From Blasia pusilla (lineage: Eukaryota): DNA of 64,000 nucleotides. Below the pieces are notes generated by a model. The model worked only from the letters and a program-made list of their open reading frames with translations. It made no database searches and was not told where the DNA came from. The stretch lies in assembly GCA_050084515.1 (NCBI GenBank), contig CM114271.1, positions 16,864,001 through 16,928,000 on the forward strand, in the 5' to 3' direction. Both the position numbers and the translations under genes were made by a program. This document shows, in pieces, positions 2,918-64,000 of the stretch (its first letter is position 1; every line of letters starts with the position of its first letter).

Positions 2918-3028
2918 AGTCTAGCAATGTGGCTCTCCATAGCCCAACAAGCCCAAATAGGCTTACGCATGCCATCATGAAACCAACTCCTCATCACTCT
3001 CACCATGCCAACGAGCTCCAGTCGCATC

Positions 3029-11546: not shown

Positions 11547-12772
11547 ATGCAACGACAGATGTCGACGTCAACAGACTCTGAGTCTGTCGTCCAAAAGAAG
11601 TATTTTCCCATACACTTTCTTTACTTCCCGATACTCCATGAACTACGTCAGATCCTTCATTCTGTCACTGCCGTACATATGCATGACGTCGCACTTTCTT
11701 CAGCTTTTCCTCCCTGAGCGCCCATCGTGGCACAGTCCAACAAGTTCGGGATTCTCGTTATGCAACAGCGGATGTGTCGAAAGAGTCTCAATCCTGGCCA
11801 GTGATACGCCCCGAAAGGCTACGACATCATCCCTGTCTCTAAAGGATGCGTTGTCACCATTCAGCCCTGATTCTCTAGGCAGAAAACGTGGGTCTGATGT
11901 AGGTCGGAGGAAAATGTGAAAAATCTAATGGATGATGTAATGCATCTGCATCGAGCAGGCTATTGGGGAAGGTGGCAATCGTAACTGGGTCAGCTGGGGG
12001 TATCGGGGCGGCCACTGCCAAGCTATTCGCAGCTCACGGAGCACATGTCATCATTGCAGACATCCAGGACGAGCTAGGTGGAAAGACTGCCCAACAAATC
12101 GGTCCCAAAGCGCTCTACCGCCACTGTGACGTCACACGAGAAGAGGATATCTCCTCAACAGTGGACTTCGCCGTGAAGGAATTCGGCAAGTTGGATATTA
12201 TGCACAACAACGCGGGCGTGTACCCTGTTGAGGAAAATTTCTGGACCTTAGACATGAAAAATTATGACCAGGTTACGGCAGTCAACGTGAGAGGGGTTGT
12301 CATGGGAATAAAGCATGCCGCTCGAGTCATGGTGCCTGCGAAAAAAGGAGTCATTCTCAACACCGCCAGTATGGCTTCGGTTTGCACCGGCAACATTATG
12401 TCTCTCATCTACAACATCAACAAGATGAATCACCCGGGTCTGACGAAAGTGGCGGCGTTCCATTTGGGGAAGCATGGAATTCGGGTTAACTGCATCTCTC
12501 CAACTGGTATACCCACAGACATGTCAGACGCTTTGCTCCGACGGTCTGGCATTGTTGACTTAGTCGACCTTACGGATGTGTACTCGAAATCGTCGTGCCT
12601 TGAGAACAGGAGCTGCACACAAGACGACTTTGCCAAAGCTGCGCTGTTTCTGTGTAGCGATGATTCTGGATACATCTCTGGTCATAACCTGTTGCTGGAT
12701 GGTGGCCTCACTAATGTCACCTCCTACGACCCGTTCAACTTCGGAGAACCCGCCAAACTCAGAGACGTTTGA
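11547..12772 (+). CDS. Short-chain dehydrogenase/reductase, plant ABA2/secoisolariciresinol-dehydrogenase-like; exons 11547-11599 and 11959-12772
   Basis: TGSAGGIG, NNAG, catalytic Ser (NTASMAS), YNINK (YxxxK), IRVNCISP. The GT-AG intron joins AA|G to give K-LLGKVAIVTG, the usual intron position in this family. The start codon is inferred. Confidence 0.92.
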
Positions 12773-16390: not shown

Positions 16391-16638
16391 GAAACAAAAA
16401 ATGAGATGTTTCAAATGAGAGAAATCACAAGTGTAATTGAATCGAGAATCGTGGGCCCATAACCTGTGATGTAGCAGACGTGTGATAATGTGAGCAGCAC
16501 ATACTCTCCAATACGTGAATACGCACTCTTTGCAAGAACATGCATCTTTTTCAATATGTATTATTTCTCGTTAGAACAACATGACGTATCGCTCTTTTAT
16601 CCACGACAAAACAAGATAGTCCTACTAGGAGCCAAGTG

Positions 16639-20559: not shown

Positions 20560-20889
20560 CAAGGTTGCATGTAGACAATGTCCGTTTCCGTAGATATGTC
20601 AATGTCTGTGGACTTATGTCCATCCTATGGAAGGACTTGTCCGTATGGACCCCACCTTTCCCTTCTTTCTCATTCCCCTTACTTGCCGTAGTGTTCCATA
20701 CTCTCCCATTTATTCCTCCCTCTACCTCCACTCCCTCCTTCCTCATTGCTCCTCTCATCCTTACCTTGCCTTCCATCATGGCCTAAAAGTATGGGTCCCA
20801 CCCCTTAGGGCCCATGTTAGTGGACAAGTCCGGACTTTTCCGTCCATGTCCGTCCTAAGCAAGAACTTGTCCATTTTTGTGCAACCATG
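20560..20889 (+). mobile_element. hAT-type MITE (330 bp)
   Basis: TIR caaggttgca...tgcaaccatg; 8-bp TSD gctacatc/gctacacc. Confidence 0.88.
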
Positions 20890-25326: not shown

Positions 25327-25658
25327 CATGGTTGCACAAAAATGGACAAGTCCTTCCTTTAGACGGACATTGACGAGCAAGTCTGGATATGTCCACGAAC
25401 ATGGGTTCCAAGAGGTTGGACCCATACTTTTAGTCCATGATGGAAAACAATGCAAGGATGCATATGAGAGGAGCAATGAGTGAGGAGGGAATGGAGGTGG
25501 GGGGAGGTGGGGGGAGGAAGAAATGGGGGAATATGGAACACGAAGGCAAGTAAGGGAAATGAGAAAGAAGGAAAAGGTGGGGCCCATACGGACAAGTCCT
25601 TCCATAGGACGGACATGGATATGTCCACGGACACGGACTTTGTTCACATGCAACTTTG
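25327..25658 (-). mobile_element. hAT-type MITE (332 bp)
   Basis: TIR catggttgca...tgcaactttg; perfect 8-bp TSD atgggtca. Confidence 0.92.
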
Positions 25659-28600: not shown

Positions 28601-30959
28601 TATCCCCCCCTTCCTTTTCGTCAAGAATCGTAGATACATTCGTTCTTGAATCCCTCTTCTACTCTTGTGGATTTTCCTTTTCTCTGTATTCCTCGTCTCG
28701 TCGAGTAGAACTGGACGAGATGATGCTATCGACTTAGTGAAACTCCGCCCTTCCTACGTGAAAGACGCACTTCCCTCGCACAGACTTCGGAGCTTTCTAG
28801 CGTGTTGCTGTACCATACCTAAGGAACCACAGAAGGGAATGAATGCCCTGCGCCTTCAACAATGAGGATGGCTGGAATGGAGGGCTTTCCCGTTAGAAAA
28901 AGCCTTAGGTTAGATTCGGCGTAGCAGGTTTGCGATTAGCTTGCAACTTATTGCCGCTATCCACAAAAGATGAAGGCGTACGAAAGGAGGCTGTACTGGA
29001 GAGAAACTTCTACCTGCAAAGCCTCGTATCCCTGTTTCGTGCAGGGATGCGAGGAGGGATCGGATCTCGAAAGGCAGGAATGCGGGGAGAGAGGGATCGA
29101 ATGGATGCGAACAAAAGACGGTATGCGTAAAGTGAAGGAAGGGACGGATCCGTTATTACAAACGCATGTGCTCTGCATCGGATACGGCGGCCGGCAGATG
29201 CATGTGAATTTTGAAAGCCGGAGGAGTTCGGAGAACCTGACACAATTCAAAGCGCAAGAACCGATGAGATTTTGACGCATGTAATTCAACATTTGTAGAC
29301 ACAGCTCGCGAAAAGAGAATGTGACCAAGGCATCAAGTACGCGGGAGGCAGGTCACGACGCTCATATGCAAACCGACTTCGAAGATTCGAATGTGATCCA
29401 TCTGCCCTGTTTAAACTGCATTCCGGAATCCGGATCCCAAGGATTGTGGCATTGTGCCATTGGGCATGCGTTACAAGTTGCGATTATGTGCGGGAAGCGT
29501 GTTCTTTTATAGAAACTGAGAAAGAACTCTTATTACATATAAAAACATTCTACGTCGAAGCGGGAACATCAGAGCAGCGCAGTCCAGTCGATACAAGATC
29601 GGCTCTCAACACAGGGAGATCTTCGATCAGAATAAACCTAGGAAAGCACGCTATGCTAAGCTTTTGCCATAGATTCGTCCGAACCGCATGAATCTTCAAG
29701 TGCATCTCGACGTTTGTATTAACTTTGGCTCAAGATCTGGAAAATCTATCGTCAAACAAATGTGTTTGACAATAGATTTTAAATTTTAAATTAATTTTTT
29801 AAAGTCCATAGTTTAGACTAGTATGGTACCATAAATTTGAGATTATATTTTTTAAATATGCATAGAGTACTTACTGAAATGTTTGGGAGCCTCCCACATG
29901 GATATGTACGCATTAATCTTACCCGTAATTTTTTATATGGTTGCAAATGAAAGCATGTGGAGAATGAGAATGTGAAACATCCTACACATGTTGAAAGTAG
30001 ATAGTTTAACATTCAAAACGTGACACAAAATAAGAAAATGTAATTTTTACTTAGTACTTACAATATTCATAACAATGGATGTCTAACTTAGCTTTGAAAA
30101 AAGTTACAAGCTCTTCCCTTATTAATCGGAGAAAGAAACTTTATCTTTTCCTTTTCAAATCCCCATCCTTCAATTAAGAAAAACAATCAATTTTTGTAAA
30201 AAAAATTCTAAAATAAAAACTAAATTTGCTCTAAACCAAGCTTGAAAATTAAAATTAATACAAATAAAACTCTTTCATCGCTTCCAAGAGTAGTTTTTAT
30301 CCCAGCATTCTCTCATTATCCTTTTTCCCAAAATATTTCTTAGTTCTCTTTCCAAACTCAGCTTGAAATTATTTATCTTCTAACAATTTTTTTCATGAGC
30401 CTTCAAACAAATAAATTTCTACTTGCAAATGAGCAAGATAATGAACATGAGGGAGCGTAAGGAAGATTTCCTAACTATTGGGAAAACTTTAGGAAAAAAA
30501 AAAATCCTAATTAATTTAGTCTAAGTACTATTTCCTCATAAATTTAAATTTTAGTAAATTTTAAAAATAAAAAGTTTCCAATTTTAAAATGAAAAATAAA
30601 AGGAATTCATCTGATTACTAAATATAGAGTAAAATTTAGAGAACAAGGAAAGTGTTATGAAGATGCTTCGTTCATAAGTTGCATAGATGGCTTTCATTCA
30701 CAAGTCCTCCATTTGAGCTAACCCTTATAATATTATGAATAGTAGATTGCACCTTACCGATATTCTCTCCCCATAAATTCCCCCAAAAATTAATCATTGT
30801 TATAAAAAAAAATATTTTTTCCTATTACCCTACATCAAATAGAATATGCAAATCAAGAAGCTAGACTTTCTTTTCAGCATAGATTAAATAAGATAACATA
30901 CATGAGTTTAGATTGCTATAAAAGGTATTACATATATACAAGGTTGCACAAGGACAAAC

Positions 30960-31450
30960 TCTATGCTCGCGTTCAGCCCCGCGGGCTTTGTGTCCCACAA
31001 CGGAGCCCGCATACGGGCCCGCGTACAGCCCGTGTGCGGGCTCTATGGCCCGCGATCCCCCCTCCTCCCCCCCGCCCGCATACGGGCCCGCCACGCCCTC
31101 CCCCGGGCCCGAGAGCCCTCCCCCGCCCGCATGCGGGCTCAAGGGCCCACGTACAGCCCACGACGGAGCCCGCATGCGGGCCCGTGAGCCCTCACCCGCC
31201 TCCCCCCCCTTGCGCGCGCATACGGGCCTACGAGCTTACATGCGGGCCCGCCGTAGCCCGCATGCAAGCCCGCAAGCCTCCGCCGTAGCCCGCGAACCCC
31301 TCCCCTGTCTGCCCCCCCCAACCCCACTAGCCCGTCGTGGCCCGCTCGAGGGCCTGCTGCTCCCGCGAACCCCGTGGGGACATGTGGCGGCCTGGGAGTG
31401 GCTAGGGCCAAGTTCGAACCCCAACCCCCCCCCCCTCCCCTTCCCCCTCC
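30960..31450. repeat. GC-rich subterminal repeat array of hAT end
   Basis: Dense agcccgc/gcgggc motifs in both orientations next to the TIR. Confidence 0.8.
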
Positions 31451-32149
31451 CTTCCCTTTTTTCCGTTTTGGGTAAAACCCATAAGGGATGGGCCCACAAA
31501 TGGCCCCAAAAATGTACATATGGAAGGAGTAAAGTACCCAATTATTAGTAATTTCTCCTATTTATCTAGTTTTTTAGTGATATTTTGGATTTGGCTCCAA
31601 ATGTTTATGGTGCCTTGATGGCTAAGGGCATTCAAGATCACTAGGAATTTTGAGAAATCCCTTGGGTGCCTTTTGGGAGTACTTGGATTTTATTTGGGAC
31701 CAACTTGGATATTTGCGCTCCTTGTTGCATCTGAAATAAACTCCGATTGACTCCACATTAGGTGAGTGTTTGTGAGTGTGGAAATCTCTTGTTTCACTAA
31801 ACTTGTTGGGTGATTTTGAGATTTCTGATCCCTAGACCCGAGTGTTTTGAATTGTTTCATTGGTTCTCCTTAGCACATCGAGGATGTGGAGGTGATCAAG
31901 GAACCTTGTCTAAACACGCCCATATCTACCTATTCCCTTTGAGAGCCCAACCCTAAACTTCCATCATTCACATGTTGGTACATTATGAGCCATTTTTTAG
32001 CATCTCACGTTATTCTCTTTTCGGTATTTTCTCGTCTCAACCCGTACATTTCTTTCCCTTTTATTTTTAAAGATATTATTATCTTCTTCATCCGAGGGAA
32101 ATATCTAGTGGGGTTGGGTCTTCTTTGGGGTTATTGCACATGGAATGGT

Positions 32150-33216
32150 CAATATCAACCCCAAAGAAGTACTACGTCCCTTGAAAAGACGTTGAGCACT
32201 TCTTAACTCTATATAGAATCTTTCTATGAGAGCCAACTCTGGGTTGAAAATGTACTTCTCTGGGGTTGACATTGACCGTTCCGTGTGCAATAACTTTGAT
32301 TTACCATAAGAATGTAGTAATAGGACATCACCCAAGCGATATTGTGGGAACTGGTTTACACGTAATTATGTACTGTTGTAAAATAAATTGAACCCATGGC
32401 TTTAGGGAAGGAATGTACTATTGCATGAAGGTGTATAAGGAATCATCTCTATCAAGATCTACAAAATCGATGATGCGAGAGGAGTTGTTTGCGAGTATTT
32501 TACATCGCGGTGTTGTTTGCATGGTGGGAAGGTTGATTGCGGATCCACCGCGTGCCATTTTTCCATATTGGAATGATGGACACCTCAAAATGCCATGTTG
32601 TTCTTCAAGTTATGGCAAGCATGCCATAACTTGAAGAACAACAAGTGTAATCTCGGAGAGTTGGAAAAGATGAGATGTCTCGCAATAGCATCAAATGTCA
32701 TCCAACTTGTGGTTGTTCTTCTTGGTACCATGGAGATTGTCCACAAGCGTGGGGTTTCATACCGACCTCCATGCTAGAAACATGTTCATCCATTTTGGAT
32801 CCAACTCTAGCCCATACATCGGCTTTGGAGATTGGGGGAATGCCATGTGGACTAATGAAGTCTTAGAGTCTCCTTATAGATGATGGCAGTATGAACAAAA
32901 AAATCATGTTGGGTATATAGCACCGGAATTGACAGCAGGGCCTCTGAATCTCCCTTTTAGCAAGGCCACTTAAATCTTTGCCCTAAGAATAATTGTGAAG
33001 AATTTGAACTATATGACATACAACCTCTCTGTCGGGAATGCCCAAGCGAACGTGAGATTTACTTATTTGGAAAGGATTCAAAAGTGGGCATGAGCTCCGA
33101 ATCCCTTTGAATGCAAAAGCTTAGAGTTTCTTATTGCATATATCAGAGCAAATGCGAAAGTATTAGGTGTAGACGATGTAGATTCCGGATTAAGTCCAAT
33201 AACAGTGGTAGTATGA
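32150..33216 (+). pseudogene. Intronless protein kinase-like pseudogene
   Basis: IVGTG, YCMKVY, REE, HRGVV, HTDLHARNMFI, IGFGDWG, GYIAPEL in order across frameshifts and stops. Confidence 0.8.
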
Positions 33217-33409
33217 TTGTAATCCCGTTTGAGGATTGGATATTTTCATGAGAAATGAAAGACTTGGTTCAAAAAGATGAATGTGTTACTATGAAATTTT
33301 GTAAATGATGAATCTTGATTGATGTGCGGATGTATCGTGTGCCATCGTATCACTATTATTAGAATCATTTCTAAATCACCTTTCTTTTTGTATTTCGGTA
33401 AAAGACAAG

Positions 33410-35638
33410 ATGGAGTTGCCACCTCATGAAGACCGTAGCCCTCACGACGATGGAAGAGGGGAAGAATCCCTCGATACACCGACACCAGAGATCCCTCCAA
33501 AGATAAACAAGAAGACGGTCTCGCAATTTGTCACGGAAGATCAATTGAAGGCGCACTTTGATAGCGCCATTGATCCACAAGTTTTGAAAGGAGATTTCAA
33601 GAAGTCACGGCTAAAGTGGCCAGAGCGTGGGATTGGAGAATTTGCAAAGAAAGTGGAAGAGAATGATTGGACAAAGGATCGGGCTTTATTCAATGGCGTC
33701 CAAAAGTACGAAGAATTCCCCTAGAGAAAGAGGAAGTTAGTGAGCAAGGTATTTGTTCAGCACAAAGTCGTAGAGTTGATGAAGGAAATGGAGGTCCAGT
33801 ATGGCGATGTGGATGAGGGGTCTCCAAGAAGAGATAAGAGACCAAGAGAAGAAGACAGTAGAACCCCACGGAAACACTTTAAACGAGCAAGAGTGGAAGC
33901 TTAATCACCACGAGCGTCGTCATGCCATTATCAGCAAGGTGGATTGTCAAGGAGCCTTAGAGCCATACTATCTTTCTTGGATGGTCAAAGAAGAAATCGT
34001 CGTGTTGAAGAATATATACAAGATGAGAGTGGAGATGAAGGGCCAGTACAGATGGGGGAGGAGGATAGATGAGATGGTTTGAATGACCTCTATGTAGGTC
34101 GTAATACGAGCTTTGATGAGCCCGAGGAGAGTTTTTGATCGCCCTATACATAGCGGTGCTCCTCCCCAAACCTTTTGTGGGGAGAGTGCTCTGGATAAAA
34201 GCGAGGTAATGTCTCCTCTATCATAGTTGGAGAGTTTAATAATAAATTCCCAACGTAATTTTGATTTGGCCGCGAAATTCAACGTTTTGAAGGGAAAGTA
34301 TGAACAACTATCTAAGGAGCACATCAGATTGAAGAAAGAGATGGAGAAGTTTTTGAACGGATCTTTTGCTAGAGATGACCTCCATAGAAGGAAAAGAGTT
34401 GTAATGGTTTACCACAAAAAGCAGTGGAGGAGAGTATGCGAGAACATCATGGCAAGATGACAGCAAGAGATGGATGAATTGTTGCGATTGAGAGTAAGAG
34501 GTAACATGGGAGAACTCATCCCCGAGACAACCCTACTTGAGGGTCATCTTGTGAAGGAGATTGATATGATCTTATTTCAACTTGTATAGCAGATGTGGCC
34601 TCCAACTCTATGCGCAGCATGGGACAATGTGATAGATCCAAACGCTGCGAACTATGCCTCTATGATGTTGGCACCAACGCCTCTTAATACGAACACACAA
34701 GTGCAAGATCTTCCGGATTGGATGAAGACAATTGCAATATGTGAAGGAGGGCCCTCATGCCAAACAACTGGCCCAAATGCATGATCTGCTTCAACCCCAT
34801 CGCGGCAGAAGGTTGCTACATGATAGGCACATTTAAAGCTTGTTATTGGCATCCATATTATCTTCAAAAGGCCATGCTACTATCTCACAAGTGTCCAACT
34901 TGTAGACAAGTTTGGTCAGGAAGACTCTATCACCTTTTGGCATATCTTTCCGCACTCTTGATGGCAATGCACCACCCACTTATCGCAAATTAATCCAAGA
35001 GCAAGAAAAATTCACTTTTAGTTTAGGACATCATAGCCCCCGATCGAACTATAACCCCAAAGTGAACATAGACGGGGTGGTTCAAAAAAATCCCTCGCCA
35101 GCGGAGGATTGATCGAGCAATGCAAGCGGGGTTGGTCCACTTCATTAACAAGTAAAATCGAGGAGAGCTCATCCATGGAACAACCATTGATCTCCAAAAT
35201 CGAGAGGCGAAAAACTTCTTCTTTGCTCAAGGGTTGAATTCACAAGAAGTTGGAGACGCCCTCAACACAACTCGACAACTTGTGCGAAACCATCATAAAA
35301 AATCCATTGATGGATGAGCTTGTTTTGAGGAGACTCAAATTGATCTTGCCACCTTTCTTATGGCAAGATATTCCTCAAAGGACTGAAGGCGGATATCCTT
35401 GAACATACTATTATCCTTGTCGAATGTAGGAGGGACTCTTTGGATTCTTCGAGAGAGAGTGGGAGATGTTTCCGACACAGCCAGCACAAGAATTTGATGA
35501 TGGTGAAGCTGATGTTGAGTTGGAAAGGACTATTCCTTGTGGAGGTGGGACGCGTGTGACTAGAGCTAGGGGCAAAGAAGGAAGAAATGGTGAGACGTCA
35601 ACACCGGTGTTACATATATCGGATGATAAAACAGATTA
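33410..35638 (+). pseudogene. Intronless coiled-coil plus RING-finger-like pseudogene
   Basis: Long E/K-rich reading segments broken by stops, then CMICFNPIAAEGCYMIGTFKACYWHPYYLQKAMLLSHKCPTCR (eroded RING), acidic tail. Confidence 0.65.
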
Positions 35639-36469
35639 GAGAGAATGAGTTGATATTTATATCTTTGTAATGTACTTAAGTATTAGGTTCCTCTCAATCC
35701 AAATGTTTTTTTGGATACTCCTCATTTATTGTAAAACATTTTCAAAAAAATTCAAAATATCCCATTAAGGAAACTTGTGAATGTGAGCCGATCACGAATG
35801 TTGTCCATGAAGTGAGTTCATGAAATGGATGAAAATTTTCTCTTGGGTTATAAATCCTTGGATAAGGTGGAAGGTACCATAATTGAATGATTTGTTTGAT
35901 ATAAATTTAATTTTTTAATCACTAACTCCTAAAAAATTACTAACTCATCAAAATAATTGACTTTCTTTTATTTATTGAAAGATGGGGATTGGAAAAGGGA
36001 TGAATTTTTTTTCCAAAATTAATGAAGGAAAATCTATGTTTGAATTGAAATGTAAAGGAAAATAATATATGAATTTTTTTTAGTGACCAATATTGCATGG
36101 GGTAGAATTTGAAAGGGACTTGGATGGAATAGAAACCAAATTTACTTATTAATTCATTTTTTATTTAATACTATAATAGATGAATATAAATCTTACTAAA
36201 TTTGTATAAATTTTAAAATGTTAGATAAATAAATTCAGAGGTGCTTTGATTCATATGTAATGGAAAGAGAAATTGAATTTTAATGGAGAATGAATAGATT
36301 TGGTTTGAATTTTATGGAAGGATGAATTTACTCTAGGGAGTATGATATCATTTACATTTGATTGCAAGAGTGTAATTACTTACAAGAGTGAAATATAATA
36401 ACTCTTCTAACATTCTATAGAATAGTGCAGATGGTTCACAAGTAACATCTATCACTCTGACAAAGTCTC

Positions 36470-38330
36470 ATCCCAAATTAAATTTAAAATGACCTTTTGG
36501 ACCCGAAGCAAATAACCTTGAATGAAAAAAAAGGTCTTTAACCAGACATCTTGTCCAATGTTTCCATCTTGAGCTAAACTTTTGCCCACGTGGTCTCCAA
36601 GGTGCATCTAGCACTCTTGCCAAGTTTAAATCAAAATGGAGTTGGGACCACAAGCTCAAAAAGTGGCAAGTCCATTTTGGACCCGAACCATTGGACCTTC
36701 TATCAAAATAAGATTTTTCCATTTTTCATTTTGTCCAACTTTCACATTTTGCACTGAAATTTGTCCAACATATTCCCCAAGGTGCATGTTAAACTCTAGT
36801 ACAGTTTCATGTAAAATGGAGCAGTGAGCAAAAGCCCCAAAATTACTAACTCCGTTTTGGACCCGAACCATCATACCTTCTATGAAAAAATGGTTTTTTC
36901 ATTTTTCATCTTGTCCAACTTTCTCATATTAAGCTGACATTTTCACAACATGATCCCCAAGGTGTATGTGACATTCTTGCCAAGTTTCAGTCAAAATGGA
37001 GTTGTGAGAAAAAAACTCAAAAATTACTAACTCCATTTTGGATCCAAATCATTAAACCTTCTACCAGAATAAGGTTTTTTTATTTTTCATCTTATCCAAC
37101 TTTCTCATCTTGAGTTGAAATTTGGCCCACATGGTCCCCAAGGTGCATCTTATACTCTTGCCAAGTTTCAGTCAAAAGAGAGTTCTCAAAAAAACTCAAA
37201 AATTACTAACTCTTTATTGGACCCGAACCATTAAACCTTGAATGAAAAGAAGATCTTATGATTTTTCACCTTCTCCACCTTTCTCATCTTGAGGTAAAAT
37301 TTGGCCCATATGAGCTCCAATATGCATATAAAAGTCTTGCAAATTTTCATGCAAAATGGAGACTTGAGCAAAAGCTCAAAAATTACTAACTCCTATTTGG
37401 ACCCAAACCATTGAACCTTCAATGAAAAGAAGGTCTTATGATTTTTCATCTTGTCCATATTTCTCAACTTGAGATGAAATTTGGCCCACATAGTCTCCAA
37501 GGTGTATCTAGGAGTCTCGCCAATTTTCAAGTAAAATGGAGTTGGGACCACGAGCTCAAAATTTGGCAAGTCCTTTTTGGACCCGAACGATCAGACCTTC
37601 AATCAAAATAAGATTTTTTCATTTTTTATCTTGTCCAAATTTTTCATCTTGAGGTGAAATTTGGCCCACATGGTCTCCAAGGTGCATCTAGTAGTCTTGC
37701 CAATTTTCATGCAAAAGAGAGATGTGAGAAAAAGCTCAAAAATTATTAACTCCTTTTTGGAACCCAACCATTAAACCTTGAATGAAAAGAAGGTCTTATG
37801 ATTTTTCACCTTGTCTACCTTCCTCATCTTGAGATGAAATTTGACCCACATGGTCTCTAAGGTGCGTTTAGCAGTCTTTCCAATTTTCACGCCAAAGGAA
37901 GTCAGGACCAGAAGCTCAAAATTTGGCAAGTCCTTTTTGGACCCAAACCATCATACCTTCTATCAAAATAAGGTTTTCTCATTTTTCATCTTGTCAAACT
38001 CTCCTCTTTAGCTGAAATTTGGCCCACATGGTCCCCAAGGTGCATGTTACACTTTTTCCAAGTTTCAATGAAAATAGACTTGTGAGAAAAAGCTCAAAAA
38101 GTACTAACTCCTCTTTTGACCCGAACCATTAAACCTTGAATGAAAAGAAGGTCTTATGATTTTTCACCTTGTCCAACTTTCTCATCTTGAGGTGAAATTT
38201 GGCCTAGATGTTCTACAAGGTTCATCTAGAAGTCTTGAAGAGATTTTCATGACAATCAAATAGGAGAGGAGAATTTTGGATGCTTAATTTAAGCTCAAGG
38301 TGAAAAGTCTTACTAACTCCTTTTGAAATG
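36470..38330. repeat. 180-bp tandem satellite, block 1 (~10 units)
   Basis: The aattactaactcc / atttggcaagtcc anchor recurs at ~36661, 36841, 37021, 37201, 37381, 37561, 37741, 37921, 38100. Confidence 0.95.
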
Positions 38331-38744
38331 CACCGCCGGCATGCAGAATCAACCATTGTTATGCATACTATGCCGTGGCACACCTTTCGAATCGACTTGA
38401 GTTACGTCTTCAAACCATCATATATTCACCGTTGTCAAACCTTTAAAGCTAGGTGCCTTTTTCAAATTTATATTTACGACAGAGCCTCCCTCTATCCCAA
38501 ATTTCTAAGATCATCAAATGAATTTTGTCCCTAGGTTCTCTACTTTGAGGTTTAGATCATCTTGATCTTTAGTTGCATCAAAGTAAAATATATTATTTTG
38601 AGGTGTCTCAACAAAATATGAGAAGATTTACCCATGTCCGATCATGAAGGGAAGATTTATGGATGATATAACATCCTCTTTATGAACATAGCACTCTCAT
38701 GGGGCGTATGATGGTAGGAAAGAGTAAAATGGCTTTGGCCTTTG

Positions 38745-40010
38745 TCATGCAAAATGGAGTTTGGAGCAAAAGCTCAAAAATTACTAACTCCTTTTTGGAC
38801 CTGAACCATTACACCTTCTATCAAAATAAGGTTTTTTCATTTGCCATCTTGTCCAACTTTGTCATCTTGAGCTGAAATTTGGTCAACATGGTCCCCAAAG
38901 TGCATCTAGCACTCTTGCGAAGTTTCAAGAAAAATGGAGTTTTAAGAAAAAAACTCAAAAATTACTAACTCCATTTTGGAGCCGAACCATTAGACCTTCT
39001 ATGAAAAACTGGTTTTTTCATTTTTCATCTTTTCCAAATTTGTCATCTTGAGGTGAAATTTGGCCCACATGGTCCCCAAGGTGCATGTTACACTCTTGCC
39101 AAGTTTCAGTCACAATGGAGTTGTGAGAAAAAGCTCAAAAATTACTAACTCGTTTTTGGACTCGAACCATCACACCTTCTATCAAAATAAGATTTTTTCA
39201 TGTTTCATCTTGTCCAAATTTTCCATCTTGAAATAAAATTTGGCCCACATGGTCCCCAAGGTTCATGTTACACTCTTGCCAAGTTTCATGCAAAATGGAG
39301 TCGTGAGCAAAAGCTAAAAAATTACTAACTCCTCTTTGGACCCGAACCATCAAACCTTCTATGAAAAAATGGTTTTTTCATTTTTCATCTTGTCCAACTT
39401 GGTCATCTTGAGGTGAAATTTGGCCCAATTGGTCCCCAAGGTGCATGTTACACTTTTTCCAAGTTTTTGTAAAAATGGAGTTGTGAGCATAAGCTCAAAA
39501 ATTACTAACTCCTTCTTGGACCGGAACCATCAGACCTTTTATCAAAATAAGGTTTTTCCATGTTTCATCTTGTCTAACTTTGTCATCTTGAGCTGAAAAT
39601 TGGCCAACATGGTCCCTTAAGGTGCATCTAGCACTCTTGACAAGTTTCAAGCAAAATAAAGTGGTGAGAAAAAGCTCAAAAATTTCTAACTCTTTCTTGG
39701 GCTCGAGCCATAAGACCTTTTACTAAAATAAGGTTTTTTCATTTTTCACCTTGTCTAACTTTCCCATCTTGAGCTGAAAGTTTATCTACATGGTTTCCAA
39801 GGTGCATGTTCCACTCTTGCCAAGTTTCAACCAAAATGGAGTTGTGTGGAAAACCTCAAAAATATGTAAGTACCTTTCAGACCCGAACCACTAAACCTTC
39901 AATGGAAAGAAGGTTTTTTCATTTTCATCATGTCCAACTTTCCCAAGTTGCGTTTGTAGCACTCTTGCAAAGTTTTGAGCAAAATGGAGTTGTGACCACG
40001 AGCTCAAAAA
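38745..40010. repeat. 180-bp tandem satellite, block 2 (~7 units)
   Basis: Same monomer, anchor at ~38780, 38960, 39140, 39320, 39500, 39681, 39861. Confidence 0.95.
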
Positions 40011-40459
40011 TCACACTTACCAATTTCACCTTCAATATAAAAATAAATGCTTTATTAGCGAGAAGTATATAAAAAGGAATTTTCCTAAAAATGACATTCT
40101 TACAATAGTCAACACAAAAAAAGTTTGCTACAACTATCTACTAAGCCATCTCACTAAATTTTTTAATTACTCTTCTAGTCTAGGTCTATGGCTGGGTCCG
40201 GTGGATGAAGATATAAGCGGTAATTTGGCGGCTCAATAGTTCGAAGTCAGGTGGATCGGCGATGAGTTCCTATTACTCTGGTTTCATCATCGGAGGAAAT
40301 GTATGAACTATCCGTGCCATGATTGATGGGTTGAGAGTTTGGAACCATATGTGTGAGAACATCATTATCATTAGGCTCATCAACTAAGTCCACCGTTTCA
40401 ACGCTCAAAGATTGTGGAGGAGTATCTCGCATAGGTTCACTAGACTCGATGGAATAATT

Positions 40460-42902
40460 CTGAACTCTTAATTTTGCAACAATATGAGGGTAGTATGTCG
40501 TTTTAGGAGAAATGTTCGGCAGATTGGCTTTTCTTGAAGTCCTCCGTTATTGCTCTCCCTCGTGCTCTCGAATCCAATGTTCCATTTCAACATCATCTTC
40601 ATCTCTTCCAAGCCCCTCGGAATCAAAATTTTCAGTGTTGTCGATATGAGTATCCTCTCTCCCTTTGATGCCATGAATTCCACATATCACATCCATCTCC
40701 TCTAGGTCCTTATCTTTCAAGTCATGGTTTCTTGCATGCAAGTTAGATTCATTGCCATCTTCTACTACCCTTCTAGCTTGTTCTTATCCATCCCTTTCTG
40801 AAAACTATTTCTCGTACAAGAGCGCTTATCATGATTTCCGAAAAACACCTTTGTCTCCAAACCTTGAGTTTGTATAGATGTAAACCAAATCCCTGGCACG
40901 TTCGTTGGTCAATTTATTCCTGTGCTTGTTGTGGATGAAACCATAACTACTCCAATTTCTCTCCACTAAAGAAGATGAAACCACTAGTGCTAATATGGAC
41001 TTAGCCACAGAGCGCAATGTTGGTGCACCTTGACCGTGCATGCTCCACCAATCAAAGGGACTAAGTGAATCAACAACTTCCCTACCAAATTCATCCACAA
41101 ATATTTCCTGATGGTTCAAAATGTTGCCCAACTCTCGCAAGCAAGTTGCCACATAAGAATTAGCCTTGGTGACATTGAGGCATGCACCCCTATTGCATAA
41201 AGTTTCAGATATTGTTTGAAATCTCTCATGCACTCAGCATTTGAAGTGACGTCTTGAACACTATCAAGAAGATTGTAAGGTGGGAGAATGTAGCCTATTG
41301 CATGTAACTTGTTGTGGATAAATGCCCACTGCCTAGAAATAACATTGACCATCTCTATAGCTCTAGACATTGTGACAAAATAACCGCGATGCCTTCCATC
41401 CACACCGAGCCATGGAGTTACAAGAAAAGAACGAGTCTCTTCCATTATCTCAAAAGTACAACGATAAATACGCCTAGTCATTGCTTTATGACCATCACAC
41501 TCTCTCAACAGAATAATAGTTGGTTGAGCCGCAACAAAAAACTCCTCACCCTCCATCCTAAAATTGTGATTGCCTCAGTAGTCTCAATCTCTCGTGCCTT
41601 CTCCCTTTGCCTCACATCCTTGCCATTGAAATACTACCTAAAAGCATTGGTGGTAATCATGGCGTGGAACGCCTACCTCAATTCTAAGACGCGTCCCAAC
41701 ATGATAAATTTTGTTGCAAAGCGTGTATTTGCAGGAAGAAACAATCGTCTCTTCATTGGATTGGTTTCCATGAATTTGGCCATCATCCAAGTTCTAGTCT
41801 TCACAAATACTACCATCTCACGAGCTTGTGCAAAAATCCTGTCCACCCAAGGCCATTTACCCCACTCTTCGTAGACTAGATCAAGAGAATGTGATACGCA
41901 TCCACCCCAAAGAATATGAAAGAACTTTGCTTTGATAAGTTTCCCTCTTGCTTGCTTATTGCTAGCATTGTTTGTCACAAGTTGCAACACATTCTCTGGA
42001 CCGATGCGCATGATAGTCCTCTCTATGTGACCTGCCAACCATTCCGTCGTTTGGGATTCCCCTTTGATGTCTACCAACTCAATCATGACCTCACCTTGTG
42101 GACAAGACACCATTATGTTCACTAAAGACTTGCTCCTCACATTGGTCCAAGAATCCATTATGATCGTGGCCCCCAAACACAAATTGTCCAATATATCATC
42201 CACCTTTTCCTTCACATTCCCCATATGTTTCTCAAGTAGGGTGGTGCGCAACGAATTGTAACTAGGACCTCAGTAACCCTTCACCTTTGTTGTTGCAAAC
42301 ACTTCTTCTTTGAAAGCATCTTGCCGTACTACGTTGAATGGTATTTCACATTTGTAGAAACACTTCGCCCATATGTTATTTGCAACTTCTATTCCTTGGA
42401 TGTTGAAAGAATCCCTTAGATCAGCTTGCTTCTTCCCACAACTACTACTCCCTAAAATGGGCCCAAGAACTCCTCTATATTGCTGGAGACTGTCACTTGG
42501 TGGCATGTCCACAACCCCATCAACATTTTGTACAACATAAACACTATTTATTATTTTTTTCAAACCTATTTGTAATGGAGTCGTCTTCTCCACTTCACTT
42601 GAAGGTCTCGCTCCCCTTATTTATCCATTTCCCACTAGTACCCCGTTTCGGAGATCCCGTTGCACGCTAGGAGGGACCTTCACACATAATTAGGCATGAT
42701 GGGTATCCTGATTCCCATCCTTTGTCTTTTGTCTCTCTAGTGTAAAATGCTCCACCATCCACGCGCTATGATAGGTTTTCATAGAATATGAACAATACTT
42801 GCACTCCCATCTGCTTGATGTTCCACCTTCCATATGTACTTCTTCCCAATCTTCCTTCACAATCTGTTGGAGTTCTTTGGCTTTGGTCATGACTACAGGC
42901 AC
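40460..42902 (-). pseudogene. hAT transposase (BED finger, DUF659-type DDE region, C-terminal dimerisation domain), disrupted
   Basis: WECKYC...H; CEIPFNVV; IIMDSWTNVR.KSLVN; LQLVTNNASN; CVSHSLDL; NTRFAT; DWWSMHG...LRSVAKSILALVVSSSLVERNWSSYGFIHNKHRNKL. Confidence 0.93.
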
Positions 42903-43354
42903 TCACTAACCCCACCCAAAAATATTTGGAAACTTTGCAACAATTTACTATGTCAATATTAGTATATATCGATCAGTAAAATATATGAAAATCCTTCCAA
43001 AAATGAGCAAATTTATATAGGGGAGGATGGAAGGAAGAGAATGAACCCTTCTAACTCCCCAAATCATCTACCCTCACTTACAATTGATTACTAAACCATC
43101 TCCATTAATTTCTATAATAAACCTATTTTTATTCTCCTATTAGATTCCTTCTTGACATATCCTAACTTCTTAACCTTGTTTATATTTCCAACAGACCTAT
43201 TTTGCAATGCAACCAGCCTATTCAAATCTATTTTAATATTTTCATTCCTTTCTCCACCACTAGGATCCTAAATTCATCACTTATTCTCATTCTAACTAAC
43301 CTATATTCTCCTACAACAACCTTATCCCAACCTCTAAAACCGTCAATCACCCAA

Positions 43355-44100
43355 ACTCGCTACGAGCCCGCAGTGGGGGCCATCTGCACACTTAAGGGCT
43401 TGCGGGCATGCTAAGCGGCCCGCGCCCTAGCCCACACGCGGGCTCTAGGGCCCGCGCATAGCTTGCACTACGAGCCTTGGAGTCCGCACGCGGTGTCTTC
43501 GCGGGCTCCAGGGCCCACAACTAGCCCATGCTTGCAGGCTCGGCGGCTCGCATGCGGGTTCCCAGGCCCGCAAGTAGCCCGCAAGTAGCCCGTAACATAG
43601 CCCGCTCGCGGGATTTAAGGCTCGCACCCTCGCTCACAAGCAGCCCGCACGCGGGCTTGGCGACTCGCGACCTAGCGTGCAGGCGGGCTCCACGGCTCGC
43701 AATGAGGCCGCGCTTTAGGGCCTGCATCCGTGCCGCATGCGGGCTCGGGCGGGCTACATCCGCCACGGGCCGTGAGCCCACACACGGGCTCGGAGGCCCG
43801 CAAGCGGCCTGTAATCAGCCCAAACGTGGGCTTTAGGTCCCGCACCCTAGCCCGCAAGTGGGCTCCAAGGCCCGTAACAAGCTCGCGCGCGGGCTGGAGG
43901 GCCCGCGACCTTGCCTACACGCGGGCTTGGCGGCCCACAAGCAGGCTTCAGGGCCCGCACCCTAGCTCGCACGTTGCACTCGCTTGCATCCTGCATCACG
44001 ACTGAGGCCCACACCCTTCATCGGAGCCCGCACCGGTGGCCCGCAAGTGGAGCCTACGCAGTCGATTTGGGCGCCACAAAAACCCGTGCTCGCGCCTAGT
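43355..44100. repeat. GC-rich subterminal repeat array of hAT end (transposase 5' side)
   Basis: Dense gcccgc/gcgggc motifs leading to the TIR at 44149-44159. Confidence 0.8.
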
Positions 44101-45769
44101 GTTCCATGTCCGGACATGTTTGTCCCATGGACGGACTTGTCCATTTCGGTGCAGCCTTGAGCATGGAGATGGAAATGAAAAGACTTTATGAAAGAATTAG
44201 ACATTTTTTTAGAAATACATACAATGATAGACATTTGATTTCAAAATATCTTTGGTAAGATATCTTTTGCAAGCCCAAGAAATGGAGAATCATAATATTG
44301 TGGAGGGATTGGAAACATGTTGAAATTCAAAGAGTTTCAAAATAGTAAAGATAGATTTCCAATTGAATACTAAAGAGAAAGAAACTAAAATTTTGCTTTG
44401 AAAGAAGAAAAAAAATCTTTTTTTCCTTGATAATTTGGGGAAAAAATAATCTTTTCCTTTTCCAACCCCCATTTTTTAGTTACAAAAAGATGATCACTTT
44501 CGTTATTCAAAAAATGAAAATTTTGTCATAGCATGGTCTTCTTCTCCCCCCTGATTTTTCCCCAAAATATTATTTACTTTTTCCTCAAAACCAAAATTCT
44601 AAATTCAAAAATTTCCCTTTTTAAAAATTGGGATAAATAATGAATAAGAGGAAGACTTAGGAATGGTGCACGAAGATCTTTATTGTTTTAGGAAAGGGAA
44701 ATCTTCCTTTGGAATTGAAAATTTGAATTGAAAAGGTAGTATGAACTTTTATTATTTTCAAGAAAATACTAAATATTAGGCTTTTAAGCTCCAAGTGTGT
44801 AAACATAAGGCGAACAATAAATGATTTGCTCCCAATTTTATTCAAAATATAAATTTGGGAAAAAATAATTTACAAAATTTAATCAATTATGGATTTATCA
44901 ATAAATAATTATCTATTCTTAGTCACAAAATTAATGGAAAATTTTCCTCATGTCTCAATGAAAATAAACGATTTGGTGTCAAACAAATTAGGGGGAAAAG
45001 TATACATGAATATTTTGTAAGGGAGATCGAATATAAAAAGCTACTTGGAAATCACATCACACTATAAAAAATGGACAAAAATCAAAAGGATCAAGAGAAT
45101 CTTTTGAATGAAAATACAATAAAGTATGGAGAGGAAGTTTGAGCTCCTTACCCAACCACAAGTGAAGAATCCAACAAAGGTAAAGCACGTGGCTCTCATA
45201 TGGAATCAATCATGGATAACTTTTAACTTCAGAAAACATAAGTTAATTATTTTTTAATTTGTTCCTCTATAATTTTCTCAAATTTTCTCAAATTTTTTCC
45301 TTTGAATTTTCCTACTTTTCTATAATTTAGATATTTCAATTTTTTTCACTTTTCAAAGTAGTTTCTTAGAATCTAATTATCTTATATATTTTAATCACAT
45401 AAAAAACTTGAATTGATAATGTAAATTACTTATTAGTAGTCTTTTGTCCCATATATAATTCAAGCTTATCTTCATAAAGTTAAAGTTCTATAAATCTCAA
45501 ATTCTACCTTCATTTTATCATTTTTATTCAAAAAAGAGAGAAATTAATTAATCCAATTGCTAAGCAAAAGTGTGTTTTAAAATTAGTGAAGGGAGCATTA
45601 ATTTTTTCAAATAAGGAAGTGACTAACATGTCTTTTTTGTTATTGAAAAAACTGTGAAAGGAATTTTTTAATCAATTACTCTCTACATGCAAAGAAAATT
45701 TTGTTTATATGCCCTTTCCAAAAGCTATCTATAGTTTTGGAAATGATTTTTTTGTGAAAAGGGAAAGGT

Positions 45770-49295: not shown

Positions 49296-49712
49296 CAATG
49301 TTGCACATTGACAAAGTCTATGTACGTGGATTTATGTCCGTTCCACATTTGTGTGGGCTTGGGTTCCTATTGCCCGCAACGTTGACCCAAGCTTAACTAG
49401 CCCACATCCAATCCAACGATTTGTCATGCTAAGATCCATACGGAGCTTGCGGAGGCCCAAATTAAGCCCACGTGACCCACAAGGTCCCTAGAGGACGGGC
49501 TCAAGACCCACACCAAGCCCTCCCTCTAAGGGCCTTGTGCGGGCTCATAGTGGGCTTGGCGAGCCCTCGTAGCCCTCACACCCGCTTGATCCTTACATTC
49601 ATCCATTCCCGCATTTTGAGCCCGTATGGGCGGTCGGGTTAAAAACAATTTCAAGATGGAGGACCCGTTGGGCATATCCGTGGATATGTCTGTCCTTTTG
49701 TGTGCAACCTTG
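49296..49712 (+). mobile_element. Non-autonomous hAT element, second subfamily (417 bp)
   Basis: TIR caatgttgcac...gtgcaaccttg; TSD gtcctgcc/tccctgcc; interior has gccc motifs unlike the 330-bp MITE. Confidence 0.75.
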
Positions 49713-50000: not shown

Positions 50001-50332
50001 CAAGGTTGCATATGGAAAAAGTCTAGGTCCATATAGACACATCCATATCTGTGGACTTACGTCTGTCTTACAGAAGGACTAGTCCGTATGGGCCCTTTCT
50101 CTCCCTTCTTTCTCATCCCCCACTTGCCTTCGTGATAGGCTTTTTCTCGTTTCTTCCTCCTCCCAGCTCCACTCCCTCCCTAATTATTCACCCGCCCATC
50201 CTTGCCTTGCCATCTACCATAATTATAAATGTGGGCCTCATCTTTTGTAATCCATGTTAGTGGACATGTCCAAACTTATTTGTTGACCATGTCCGTCCTA
50301 GGGAAAAACTTGTTCATTTTTGTGCAACCATG
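50001..50332 (+). mobile_element. hAT-type MITE (332 bp)
   Basis: TIRs as in the other copies; TSD cccaaggc/cctagggc. Confidence 0.85.
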
Positions 50333-50440: not shown

Positions 50441-50748
50441 CAAGGTTGCACGTGAACAAAGTCCGTGTCCGTGGACTTATGTCGTTATATGGAAGGACTT
50501 GTCTGTATGGGTCCCATCTTTATCTTCTTTCTCATTCCTCTTATTGCCATTGTGTTTCATATTCCCCATTTCTTCCTCTCTCCACCTTCATTCCCTCCTA
50601 CCTCCACTCCCTCATGCCTCATTGCTTCTCTCATCCTTGCCTTGTCTTCCATCATGGACTAAAAGTGTGGGTCTCATCTTTCGGAACCCATGTATGTGAA
50701 CATGTCCAAATTTGTTCGTCCATGTGCGTCCATTTTTGTGCAACCATG
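50441..50748 (+). mobile_element. hAT-type MITE (308 bp)
   Basis: caaggttgcac...tgcaaccatg, interior homologous to the other copies; no clear TSD. Confidence 0.85.
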
Positions 50749-52025: not shown

Positions 52026-55000
52026 ATGGCACCCCGAGAATCACAGTCGGCCAAGCCGTCTGCGGATCCTTCTTCTCCGAACAAAGTAAGTCGGCATTGA
52101 TTTCCCCGAATAGTACTACGTGTGTACGTGATAGCTCGTAGTTGGAGCACTCACTCTCTGTTACTTACTCGCCGCGCGAGTCGTTTGTGTTGCTTGTGTG
52201 TATGGCAGCGGCTGTCCAAGGCTCGCTCTCTTGTATCGATTCTAGTGAATGCAGCGATCCGAATTAAGGGTCTTGGGATCTTTCAGAGGAGCTTATGATG
52301 GTGAGGCTCGAGCTCGAGCTTGGACACAATTGCGGGGATTCATACAGAGAAATGAGCTCGTGTTCATGACTACGTTGTAGCTATCGGAGTCAGCTCACCT
52401 TTCTCGTCCAAGTCCTTGTATTGAGAGTACCCAATTAGTGCGCTAGCTTTTAATTTTCGTCCCAAACCGAGAGCGGTCGTTGCGTGCGGACGCCATGATT
52501 AGCATCCGTTACTCATTCAGTTGAACGCGTATTCATGGCTTCCCAATTCATAAGACACTCGGAGTCCGAATCCAACAGCGGGAGAGTAGAGGGTCGTGTT
52601 GGCCGAGTGGAAGACCCCGTCGCTGAAGAGCAGATATCAGATAAGTTTGAGACTATGATCGATATATTTCATGCCTACAGCTAGGAGAGCTCGCCTCCAT
52701 CATTAATGGACGGATTGTAGAACATCTCTTTCAAGGCCCTACATCCTCGAAACTGCAAGAATTTTGAAAATTATTCTTTCTTTCACAAGTTCCTGATAGA
52801 TGTCTACACTGTCTGGCGGTTTCCGTAGATTTCTTCCACGTATCTATGGATGGATTGCAGCCTTGACTTCCAAAGTATCCATTAGCATTCGATGGAATAG
52901 ACGAGTGCTCAACGAAACCCTTTCGTACTTCAATTCGAGGAAATCTTAACGAAAATACGCATTTCGCTTAGTTTCTACTTTCTTAGTACATAGGCTTGTT
53001 TTTCCCTCGACACTACGTATACACACGTCCTAATGTAGAGTTTCGTATTCTTGATTGGTGTTACTTATATTTTCTATAGCCCGAAACATGCGTGTAGATT
53101 GGGGAGCTGTTCAGATCATTTGTTCAAGTCTCGTGTTGTTCGTCAAGGGATCGTGATTAATCTTAATAGATGGGCACTAGATTATGTACTGGTTCATATA
53201 ATTCAGGAGTTCATCCGACACCTCCGTCGTAGATTCTCTGTGACTTCGTGCGTAGAGATGTCGATATGTGAACTGACATCCCATATCGCCAGTTTTAGTA
53301 GCCAGCGGACCCAAGGTTTCTGCGAAAAACGTCCTATCGATCTGAATTTTTTCCTCGGGGATGGCAGTTTGAACATATTTGGATCCGATGCTTTCTATCT
53401 GACGGGATTCCGTTCAGCTATACTTTCTAACTTGCTGCTTTTCTCATCACCTTTGGGTCTCCCGTCATTGTGTGGAAGATACTAGGTAGGACCGATAATC
53501 CGTAAGTAGTGCCAACGGATTTGGAGGTTAATATCTTCGGTGTTTGCATGGGGTCCTGATTTAGAGGGTTCTGATGCTGCAGACGCAGAACGAAACTGCG
53601 ATAAGTGTAGATGGATCAAGACAATCCGGTGGTGACAATGCGAAGAACTTCGATGATTGGCTTCCCATCACTGCGTCTCGACAAGGAAAATGGTGGTACT
53701 CTACTTTCCACAACGTGACGGCGATGGTGGGGGCCGGTGTGCTGGGGCTTCCTTCCGCGATGAGCTTTCTCGGATGGTACGTCCTGCCCATGTTCCTTCC
53801 ATTCAACTGGACTTCATACGATTCTTCCCCCCCCCCCTCTCAAACCGCATTCCATGGTGATCTTCTGGTCCGACTGGCTGGCTTCCATCACTCTAAGATT
53901 AAATGATGTCTCAGTACCTCTGGCCTACAAGAGCATGATATTAAAATGTTTCGTCGGAAGTCGAATGTATTTTAATCACTACCCGATGTGCAGAAATGCA
54001 AGCTTGATCAGCTGAACTTGTTCATAGCTGTATATCGACTCTTTGTGGAGTGGCATGAAGGTGTAGAGCTTTCCATCGATTGTAACTGTAGCTAGTTGAA
54101 TTCTAAGCCCAGGCATAAAATCTCTGCATATAAATAAGTAAAAACCGAAAGAAAAATAGATGAGAGTATGCGTCCGGACTCCTACCGCTCACAGATCGAA
54201 AGAGCTGTTCCCACGAAGAACATGAGTGCATCCGTACGGTTTTTCACTTGAGCTTACTCATGAACATTAGGCGGTAGGAGCTAAGCCCCTCACGAGGCTA
54301 GATCGTACTCGAATCGTAAAGTTTGAAGGGGGCTTAGGCTTAGTGTGCAGTGATGGATTGTGCGGAGGTCATCAGCTGACACTGGCATATGGCTTGTTAT
54401 GGGTGTCTGGTTGGGACAGGGAAGGTGGCATAGTTGTGCTGATAAGCTCGTGGGCTATCACGCTGTACACTCTGTGGCAAATGGTTGAGATGCACGAGAT
54501 GGTTCCGGGGAAAAGATTTGATCGATACCATGAGCTGGGCCAGCACGCTTTCGGTCCGAAACTGGGGCTGTCGATGGTGGTGCCACAGCAGCTCATGGTG
54601 AGCTCGGGTTTCGGAATCGTGTACATGCTGACAGGCGGGGAATCGCTGCAAAAGTTTTACAGCTTGATCAAGTGCCCTGACATGAAAATCGAAAAGGACA
54701 CGGACATTCATTGCGGTCATATTGGCAAATCAGCTTGGATCATCATCTTCGCATCTCAGCACTTCTTCTTCTCACAGCTCCCCAATTTCAACTCTATTTC
54801 TGGTGTCTCACTCGCCGCTGCTATCATGTCCGTATGGTACGTACACACGCCCGAACCTTTTTGGAGACATGTCTACTGCGGACGTCTTTACGAGTTCTCC
54901 CGTTGAAGCTGAATCTACTCCGTGTTTCTATATATATAGAAACACGGAGTGGACTTCCTATATTTATTTATTTATTTAAGTTAGGTCAATATTCTTGGTT

Positions 55001-63878: not shown

Positions 63879-64000
63879 CTGTTGGAAATCATAATCCAGC
63901 GCACTCGTCAGAATCAGCTGGCAGCTCACTAACAAGCCCATCTTCCCCATCCGCAGTGCTCTCATCGTTTCTTCATATATTTCCCACTTCGATGATCGGT

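Follow-up and report, generated by a model that had tools for sequence, protein, structure and literature searches.

A 13.2-kb region of Blasia pusilla contig CM114271.1 (assembly GCA_050084515.1) is bounded by two ends of the hAT transposon superfamily, at positions 30939 and 44159 of the 64-kb window analysed here, which is the stretch from 16,864,001 to 16,928,000 of the contig. Between these ends lie, from left to right, a broken protein-kinase open reading frame (ORF), a broken Cys-rich ORF, two arrays of a 180-bp satellite and, on the opposite strand, a hAT transposase pseudogene. Every gene in this copy is broken and the copy has no function today. An initial annotation of the window had described the same region as a giant hAT transposon that carries a kinase and a coiled-coil/RING gene as cargo, with which it might act on the host.

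Results

Terminal ends and subterminal arrays

The left terminal inverted repeat (TIR; 30939–30949, plus strand) reads CAAGGTTGCAC, which conforms to the YARNG terminal pattern of hAT elements. The right TIR (44149–44159, minus strand) reads CAAGGCTGCAC in reverse complement, such that 10 of the 11 positions are identical and the pair qualifies as a hAT TIR of the YARNG type. Within the window, the sequence CAAGGYTGCAC occurs with at most one mismatch at 16 sites where 1.64 would be expected, a count that was not attained in any of 100 shuffles; the pair 30939/44159 is thus not a product of chance.

Five small elements in the window carry ends of the same kind, namely four miniature inverted-repeat transposable elements (MITEs) of ~330 bp at 20560–20889, 25327–25658, 50001–50332 and 50441–50748, and a non-autonomous element of 417 bp at 49296–49712. 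They are 69–80% alike to one another, and in each the left end is unlike the right end. The 8-mers flanking the four MITEs match at 7/8, 8/8, 6/8 and 3/8 positions, respectively, and those flanking the 417-bp element at 6/8. A match of at least 6/8 is therefore present in four of the five, a level attained by 0.6% of random 8-mer pairs from the window, and this hAT family therefore generates target-site duplications (TSDs) of 8 bp.

The end at 30939 resembles the left ends of these small elements (BLAST, E 1e-3 to 0.15), whereas the end at 44159, where a MITE-type right-end sequence lies just inward of the TIR, matches the right ends of two of the five (E 9e-5 and 3e-4) and those of two more at E 0.16 and 1.8. 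The fifth, 49296–49712, shows no right-end match at 44159; its last 12 bases match the left terminus only, in inverse orientation (E 0.71). In the 13.2-kb pair, one end is of the left type and the other of the right type, in the correct mutual orientation, so that the complementary hAT ends 13.2 kb apart of the initial annotation are borne out.

Each end is followed inward by a GC-rich subterminal array of GCCCGC/GCGGGC motifs, as had also been described. The left array (30950–31420) contains 17 motifs between 30981 and 31345, and the right array (43351–44148) contains 22 between 43366 and 44044, out of a total of 51 GCCCGC sites in the window as against 9.4 expected. The left arm (30939–31420) has a GC content of 0.73 and a CpG observed/expected ratio of 0.88, and the right arm (43351–44159) has values of 0.67 and 0.93. 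Taken together, the shared end types and the arrays at both ends establish that 30939 and 44159 are true hAT ends of one subfamily. The 417-bp element is the only small element with GCCCGC motifs (49372 and 49539), which makes it the closest small relative of the 13.2-kb element.

A pyrimidine tract (31411–31470) forms the inner edge of the left arm, and the MITEs contain a similar tract midway along their length; positions 145–173 of the MITE at 25327 match 31427–31457 with an E-value of 1e-3, a match that is weak because it is of low complexity. No further hAT end was found between 30939 and 44159 when up to two mismatches to the end motif were allowed, bar one chance match inside the satellite, and BLAST with whole MITEs and with MITE ends revealed no inner end either. 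Elsewhere in the window, single end-like motifs at 46493, 21064, 52865, 58896 and 60407 stand without a matching partner or duplication, and the flanks of the candidate pairs 46493/49712 and 58896/60407 match at 2/8 positions.

The transposase pseudogene

The transposase pseudogene occupies 40250–42890 on the minus strand. DUF659 (Pfam, E 7.7e-36, 123.5 bits against a cut-off of 34.7) and Dimer_Tnp_hAT (E 2.9e-11, 43.4 bits against a cut-off of 21.4) are both recognized within it, and a BED-like Cys/His motif can be made out by eye ahead of DUF659. The stretch upstream of the gene (42891–43350, minus strand) is AT-rich and probably represents its leader or promoter region. Although the domains are those of a hAT transposase, the gene is dead: it contains three in-frame stops within its first 409 codons and another at 40547–40549, and its C-terminal parts lie in two other frames. 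Thus, the oppositely oriented transposase of the initial annotation is correct in strand and identity, but it is broken by four stops and spread over three frames. The read-through of the gene found no close relative in a protein word index.

An atypical protein-kinase pseudogene

The first ORF of the inner segment is an atypical protein-kinase pseudogene at 32266–33213 on the plus strand, where the frame 32248–33213 contains seven in-frame stops in 322 codons and the N-terminal region is absent. On its own, the ORF scores below the Pfam cut-off (PK_Tyr_Ser-Thr, E 0.05, 13.3 bits against 23.1) and finds no kinase at E<1 among PDB sequences. Its homologues are more informative, since a phmmer search against 1.84 billion representatives returned 16 matches at E<=1e-3 (best E 7.9e-15, 31% identity), of which 14 pass the curated cut-off of Pkinase or PK_Tyr_Ser-Thr. 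Through these homologues the ORF belongs to the protein kinase superfamily, so that the kinase named initially is genuine in its ancestry, although what remains of it is a pseudogene. Eight of the 16 matches were looked up, and two of them, from two Riccia liverworts, are hypothetical proteins; the remaining six are short contigs.

The alignment of the family displays the motifs WNGG, HNDLHxRN[IV][FL][LI]HF, VYxG[IL][AG]DWG and APE together with a C-terminal SGLRP, and the window copy has HTDLHARNMFIHF, YIGFGDWG, GYIAPE and a C-terminal SGLSP. As these motifs are common to the homologues, the unusual features of the kinase are traits of its family rather than signs of decay, and the alignment places it in a distinct atypical kinase family, marked by HxDLHxxN and GDWG. 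The columns of the Glu, the Asp, the Asn and the GDWG Asp are kept in the window copy (alignment A2), as is the Lys column as judged by eye. Given the atypical motifs (HxDLHxxN, and GDWG in place of DFG) and the seven stops, we make no claim of kinase activity for this copy. Metagenome scans with the kinase alignments A2 and A3 gave pattern matches, none of which was confirmed, and with protein query P0007 the word index returned one weak generic kinase among longer proteins and the protein atlas returned generic kinase clusters.

Homologues of 440–470 residues possess an N-terminal region of ~170 residues that has no tblastn match in the window, where only 32266–33204 aligns. Sequence reads were mapped to 30400–36540 at a likeness of at least 85%, with the pyrimidine tract 31411–31470 masked, using one whole-genome run (~1% of the run), one RNA run and the contig sets X1 and X2. 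Of the reads, 45 diverge from the window after 32120 and 26 after 32241, and continue into DNA that is absent from the window, which is consistent with the missing N-terminus of the kinase. The stop at 32881–32883 is TGG in 73 of 82 whole-genome reads. A near-palindrome of 165 bp (32130–32294; 43-nt arms, 91% complementary, 79-nt spacer) lies at the site where most family copies continue into other sequence, and it may mark the deletion of the kinase N-terminus.

A broken Cys-rich reading frame

In the second broken ORF (33410–35636, plus strand), the N-terminal part is charged, another part may form a coiled coil, and a Cys/His motif is present as well. The ORF shifts from frame 2 to frame 0, back to frame 2 and then on into others as far as ~35636, and it contains in-frame stops. 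Its first piece begins at an ATG at 33410 and extends in frame to 34069 with two stops, its second piece (34227–34781) likewise contains two stops, and its third piece (34745–34990) holds the motif C-x2-C-x17-C-x2-H...C-x2-C. Most other copies carry an additional T at two sites, namely after 33242 in 40 of 62 reads and after 34934 in 70 of 132; the latter would extend the Cys-rich frame through 34906–35109.

The Cys/His motif itself (34778–34903, plus strand) retains, in the window copy, six of the eight ligand positions of a RING finger, and the consensus of the family may differ. Its best scores lie well under the respective cut-offs (zf-RING_2, E 0.18, 12.5 bits against 27.3; zf-C3HC4_3, 12.9 bits against 27), and single RNF4 RING chains match at E 0.11–0.2, whereas a lower value of 8.9e-4 stems from a tandem RNF4 construct in which the motif is counted twice. 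We therefore describe the motif, from its ligand pattern, as RING-like and not as a RING. The coiled coil is supported by a single HALZ match (E 0.018), and both halves of the coiled-coil/RING designation of the initial annotation are thus less well supported than it implies. No homologues of the second ORF were found in the word-index search against longer proteins or in the protein atlas, and the plain ORF 33410–33721 reached scores of at most 0.85 in the protein atlas, with no family assigned.

Satellite arrays and the edges of the inner segment

The two ORFs are followed by an AT-rich spacer (35641–36500, GC 0.27), and then by two tandem arrays of the 180-bp satellite that had been noted initially and that is confirmed here: array A (36547–38228; 9.4 copies, 76% matches) and array B (38745–39941; 6.6 copies, 82% matches). 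The arrays are separated by an interruption of 516 bp (38229–38744) with an inverted partial monomer at 38296–38324, and by eye an additional partial monomer appears to extend array B to ~40010. The spacer contains an AT-rich repeat of ~70 bp (35952–36030, inverse) that recurs in direct orientation in both outer flanks of the element, at 30114–30195 and 44421–44490, with a mean column identity of 72%.

The kinase and the Cys-rich gene, both on the plus strand, and the two arrays are contained in the 8.8-kb segment between the stop codon of the transposase (40247–40249) and the left arm. A six-frame read-through of 31461–36502 gave no Pfam family at E<=0.1, and this part of the segment accordingly lacks a transposase, a reverse transcriptase and a helicase. 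Neither termini in the form of a TIR, long terminal repeat or hairpin nor a credible duplication were found for the inner segment. A TIR-like sequence, CAAGATCAC at 31633, which was identified from a contig end, has no inverted partner, and read depth continues to its left. A 24-nt inverted match between 31509–31532 and 42821–42844 (VHMEG codons) is no better than chance pairs, and tblastx is empty there. Rfam and tRNA scans were both empty, and neither blastn nor tblastx found a second copy of the block or of the structure elsewhere in the window.

Copy number, divergence and transcription

The depth of whole-genome reads, with both columns summed, rises from left to right across the mapped part of the element. 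It is 0.39–0.42 over the flank 30400–30809, a rough value of about one read, then 1.4, 3.4 and 3.2 over 30810–31424 and 13.6 over 31425–31629, and it reaches 43–144 (mean ~88) over 31630–36540. We refer to 31630–36500 (plus strand) as the high-copy block. The left edge of the block is gradual: depth is 11 at 31501, 32 at 31603 and 68 at 31830, and it falls stepwise from 31700 to 31460, where none of the listed clusters of loose ends is located. Within the block, depth peaks over the kinase catalytic region (32655–33064) and over the Cys-rich motif (34705–34909). The hAT arm subfamily is low-copy, with about 4–10 arm equivalents.

In four classes of likeness to the window copy, the reads number 11, 191, 1500 and 1845, and as most are 85–95% alike, the block family is old. 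Internal deletions with short filler DNA occur in reads and contigs, joining 32836 to 33731, 33813 to 35642 and 33791 to 34666. The RNA run contributed 37 reads out of 10.1 million records, split 0/1/11/25 over the same classes, such that none is at least 99% alike to the window copy. Some members of the family are therefore weakly transcribed, and nothing points to transcription of the window copy.

Other features of the window

On the minus strand, 1490–5827 forms one frame with in-frame stops, in which a C-5 cytosine DNA methylase domain (E 3.7e-10) precedes RVT_1, RT_RNaseH, Integrase_H2C2 and rve. The frame is a pol of the Ty3/gypsy type fronted by a DNA methyltransferase domain. The stretch 1224–3410 is ~70% alike to 14535–16394, a partial second copy of the element. 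An uninterrupted ORF of 278 residues for a short-chain dehydrogenase (adh_short_C2, E 1.4e-55) lies at 11936–12769 on the plus strand, and genes or pieces of genes for Aa_trans amino-acid transporters lie at 53565–55935 (plus strand) and 62856–63907 (minus strand), in inverted arrangement and ~79% alike over several exon-sized blocks.

Discussion

We tentatively interpret 30939–44159 as a large element of the hAT superfamily from a multi-gene hAT lineage, dead and rearranged in this copy, a reading that falls somewhat short of probable. In such a lineage, the kinase/Cys-rich module would be a passenger or accessory of the hAT and would not have become nested there by chance. Its spread would be due to hAT transposase acting in trans, mostly in elements whose arms were unlike those of the window copy, and the window copy would have lost its TSD through recombination between copies or rearrangement of a flank before it decayed. 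This reading is favoured by the left- and right-type ends in correct orientation with like GCCCGC arrays, by the lack of inner ends in the searches above, by the 8-bp TSDs of the family and by the transposase domains. The block fills exactly the gap from the transposase stop codon to the left arm, and transposase and module are alike in decay and composition. Moreover, the block has no mobility gene and yet stands at a depth of ~88 as against ~0.4 in the flank, so a helper was needed. One stop codon, two 1-bp frame changes and the missing stretch after 32120 are private to the window copy or found in a minority, which indicates that the window copy is more broken than its family. Deletions with filler DNA, of the kind observed in the block, are a derivative pattern of cut-and-paste elements such as Ac/Ds.

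Several observations weigh against this interpretation. The sequences flanking the 30939/44159 pair, CATATATA and AGCATGGA, agree at 3/8 positions, which is the level of chance, so that the lack of an 8-bp TSD reported initially stands and there is no TSD to show that the 13.2-kb unit inserted here in one piece; a search for partner duplications of either flank found none. The absent TSD calls for an extra event under every reading, the simplest being recombination between two copies or rearrangement of a flank. The RING-like motif of this copy has neither eight zinc ligands nor a model score above cut-off, and thus does not count as a RING finger. There is also a disparity in copy number, since the block has ~27 times the depth of the left hAT arm and roughly 200 times that of the single-copy flank, the latter value resting on about one read. 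The contigs behave alike: those of X2 give 0–0.4 on the left arm as against 51–422 on the block, and those of X1 give 0–1.3 on the arm, ~9 on the flank and 481–10582 on the block. A normal hAT family has as many copies of its ends as of its interior, or more.

The block has therefore spread mostly without the left arm, or with arms too diverged to align at a likeness of at least 85%. In part, the arm may owe its low depth to an artefact, with the arrays of short motifs losing their positional homology. Faster decay of CpG in the arms does not account for it, as the CpG observed/expected ratios there are 0.88–0.93. As the arm exceeds the flank in depth, sequencing bias alone is insufficient, and with CpG undepleted as well the 27-fold ratio is not explained away. 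This ratio nearly amounts to the block occurring elsewhere without these TIRs, the result that the initial annotation had named as fatal to its own proposal. Of the cargo-carrying hAT proposed there, the order TIR, kinase, Cys-rich gene, satellite, transposase, TIR is retained, whereas the element is a relic that lacks a TSD and whose block outnumbers its arm.

The same ratio, which is the sole quantitative datum from the genome, speaks for a nested insertion, and we regard such an insertion as possible though unlikely. Here, a high-copy repeat unrelated to the hAT would have inserted once or more into an ordinary hAT of ~4.4 kb (30939 to ~31470 and ~40240 to 44159) and divided it, bringing with it the 180-bp arrays as well as the pseudogenes of the kinase and the Cys-rich protein; these genes would never have been hAT cargo. 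Removal of ~31470 to ~40240 does restore a hAT of canonical size and layout, and nesting is very common in large repeat-rich genomes. In addition, an 8-base direct repeat, AGTTCGAA, is present at both edges of the insert (31411–31418 and 40238–40245), but as an insert TSD it is no more than a lead, since the pair is at the level of chance (E 1.4) and its left copy falls on the outer side of a tract that the MITEs seem to have in common with the element. Neither termini nor a convincing TSD were otherwise found for the insert, its left edge is not sharp and coincides with none of the listed clusters of loose ends, and the block has no mobility gene of its own. To spare both the transposase ORF and the arms, it would have had to land by luck in what we estimate to be perhaps 5–10% of the element, and a second event would still be required for the missing TSD of the hAT.

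It is rather improbable, in our view, that the two ends derive from separate insertions or from an aberrant transposition, in which case they would stem from two nearby copies of the same subfamily, with an interior of local repeat-rich DNA or one joined by deletion or alternative transposition. Transposition to nearby sites is a property of hATs, and paired hAT ends give rise to rearrangements, as in Ac/Ds. The flank match of 3/8, as compared with 6–8/8 in four of the five MITEs, accords with this scenario, and the ~70-bp AT-rich repeat is common to the inner spacer and both outer flanks. Against it, two insertions of a low-copy subfamily within 13 kb would need local hopping, neither inner ends nor remnants of them are present, the halves are oriented exactly as in one element, and the block starts at the inner edge of the left arm.

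The initial annotation suggested that the kinase and an E3-ligase-like gene are functional cargo with an effect on the host, such as one against silencing. We consider this very improbable, and for the window copy it is refuted by the stop codons. This copy does keep the family's catalytic positions (Glu, HxD, N, the GDWG Asp and, as judged by eye, Lys), depth peaks over the very regions that encode the kinase core and the Cys-rich motif, and the 37 RNA reads come from members of the family. However, the kinase has seven stops and a deleted N-terminus, the second ORF has four stops and frame changes, no RNA read is at least 99% alike, the RING identity is unsupported, and no datum ties either gene to silencing.

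Beyond the window copy, our reading of a multi-gene hAT can be extended to a broader proposal, which we put forward as a doubtful one. There may be a clade of multi-gene hATs, present in more than one genome, whose masters encode a DUF659-type transposase, an atypical kinase (HxDLHxxN, GDWG, C-terminal SGLRP) and a Cys-rich RING-like protein. The latter two would be accessory genes of the elements' own, kept by selection and amplified to at least 100 copies, and the window would hold a complete but dead example with both ends.

Among known systems, the element is most readily compared with autonomous plant-type hATs that are Ac/Tag1-like, with which it shares TIRs that start with CAAGG, arrays of a short motif just inside either end, 8-bp TSDs in members of its family, and a transposase with DUF659 and a hAT dimerisation domain, the 5' end of its gene being close to a terminus of the element. 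It differs from them in its two extra ORFs, 3 kb of satellite, lack of a TSD and broken ORFs, as well as in its length of 13.2 kb, Ac being a few kb long. A narrow full-text search of the literature, with most subscription journals outside its coverage, found no kinase-carrying hAT.

Non-transposase DNA between hAT ends is also a feature of Pack-hAT elements. Pack-TYPE elements carry fragments of low-copy host genes. With the window element, Pack-hATs share such internal DNA, whereas the window element has a transposase gene, a high-copy passenger with whole ORFs and no TSD, and it is for these reasons not assigned to them. PMC8903248 describes Pack-hAT elements in maize, 8-nt duplications for all hATs annotated there, acquisition of DNA by mobilising neighbouring elements, and Pack-TYPE elements that are non-autonomous and poorer in repeated DNA than the rest of their superfamily. 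Transposon-mediated gene amplification (transduplication) is described for fungi in PMC6710886 and PMC3538342, by elements that are presumably hATs. The fungal cases concern another kingdom and other genes, and in the window element amplification by hAT ends is hypothetical.

In Ac/Ds macrotransposons and alternative transposition, distant hAT ends enclose other DNA, and rearrangements remove matching duplications. Macrotransposons retain the inner ends of both elements and create an 8-bp duplication on insertion. The window element has no inner TIR at up to two mismatches other than the chance match in the satellite, no inner match to MITE ends and no TSD, and was therefore rejected as a macrotransposon.

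Should the module be an integral part of a hAT lineage, the element would represent a cut-and-paste transposon that is unusual in having several genes, among them one for a signalling-type enzyme, and the question would become what a transposon gains from a kinase of its own. If it is instead a nested repeat, the locus would be an ordinary transposon graveyard. Under either reading, an atypical kinase family that is repeated about a hundred-fold or more and has relatives among liverwort proteins merits attention.

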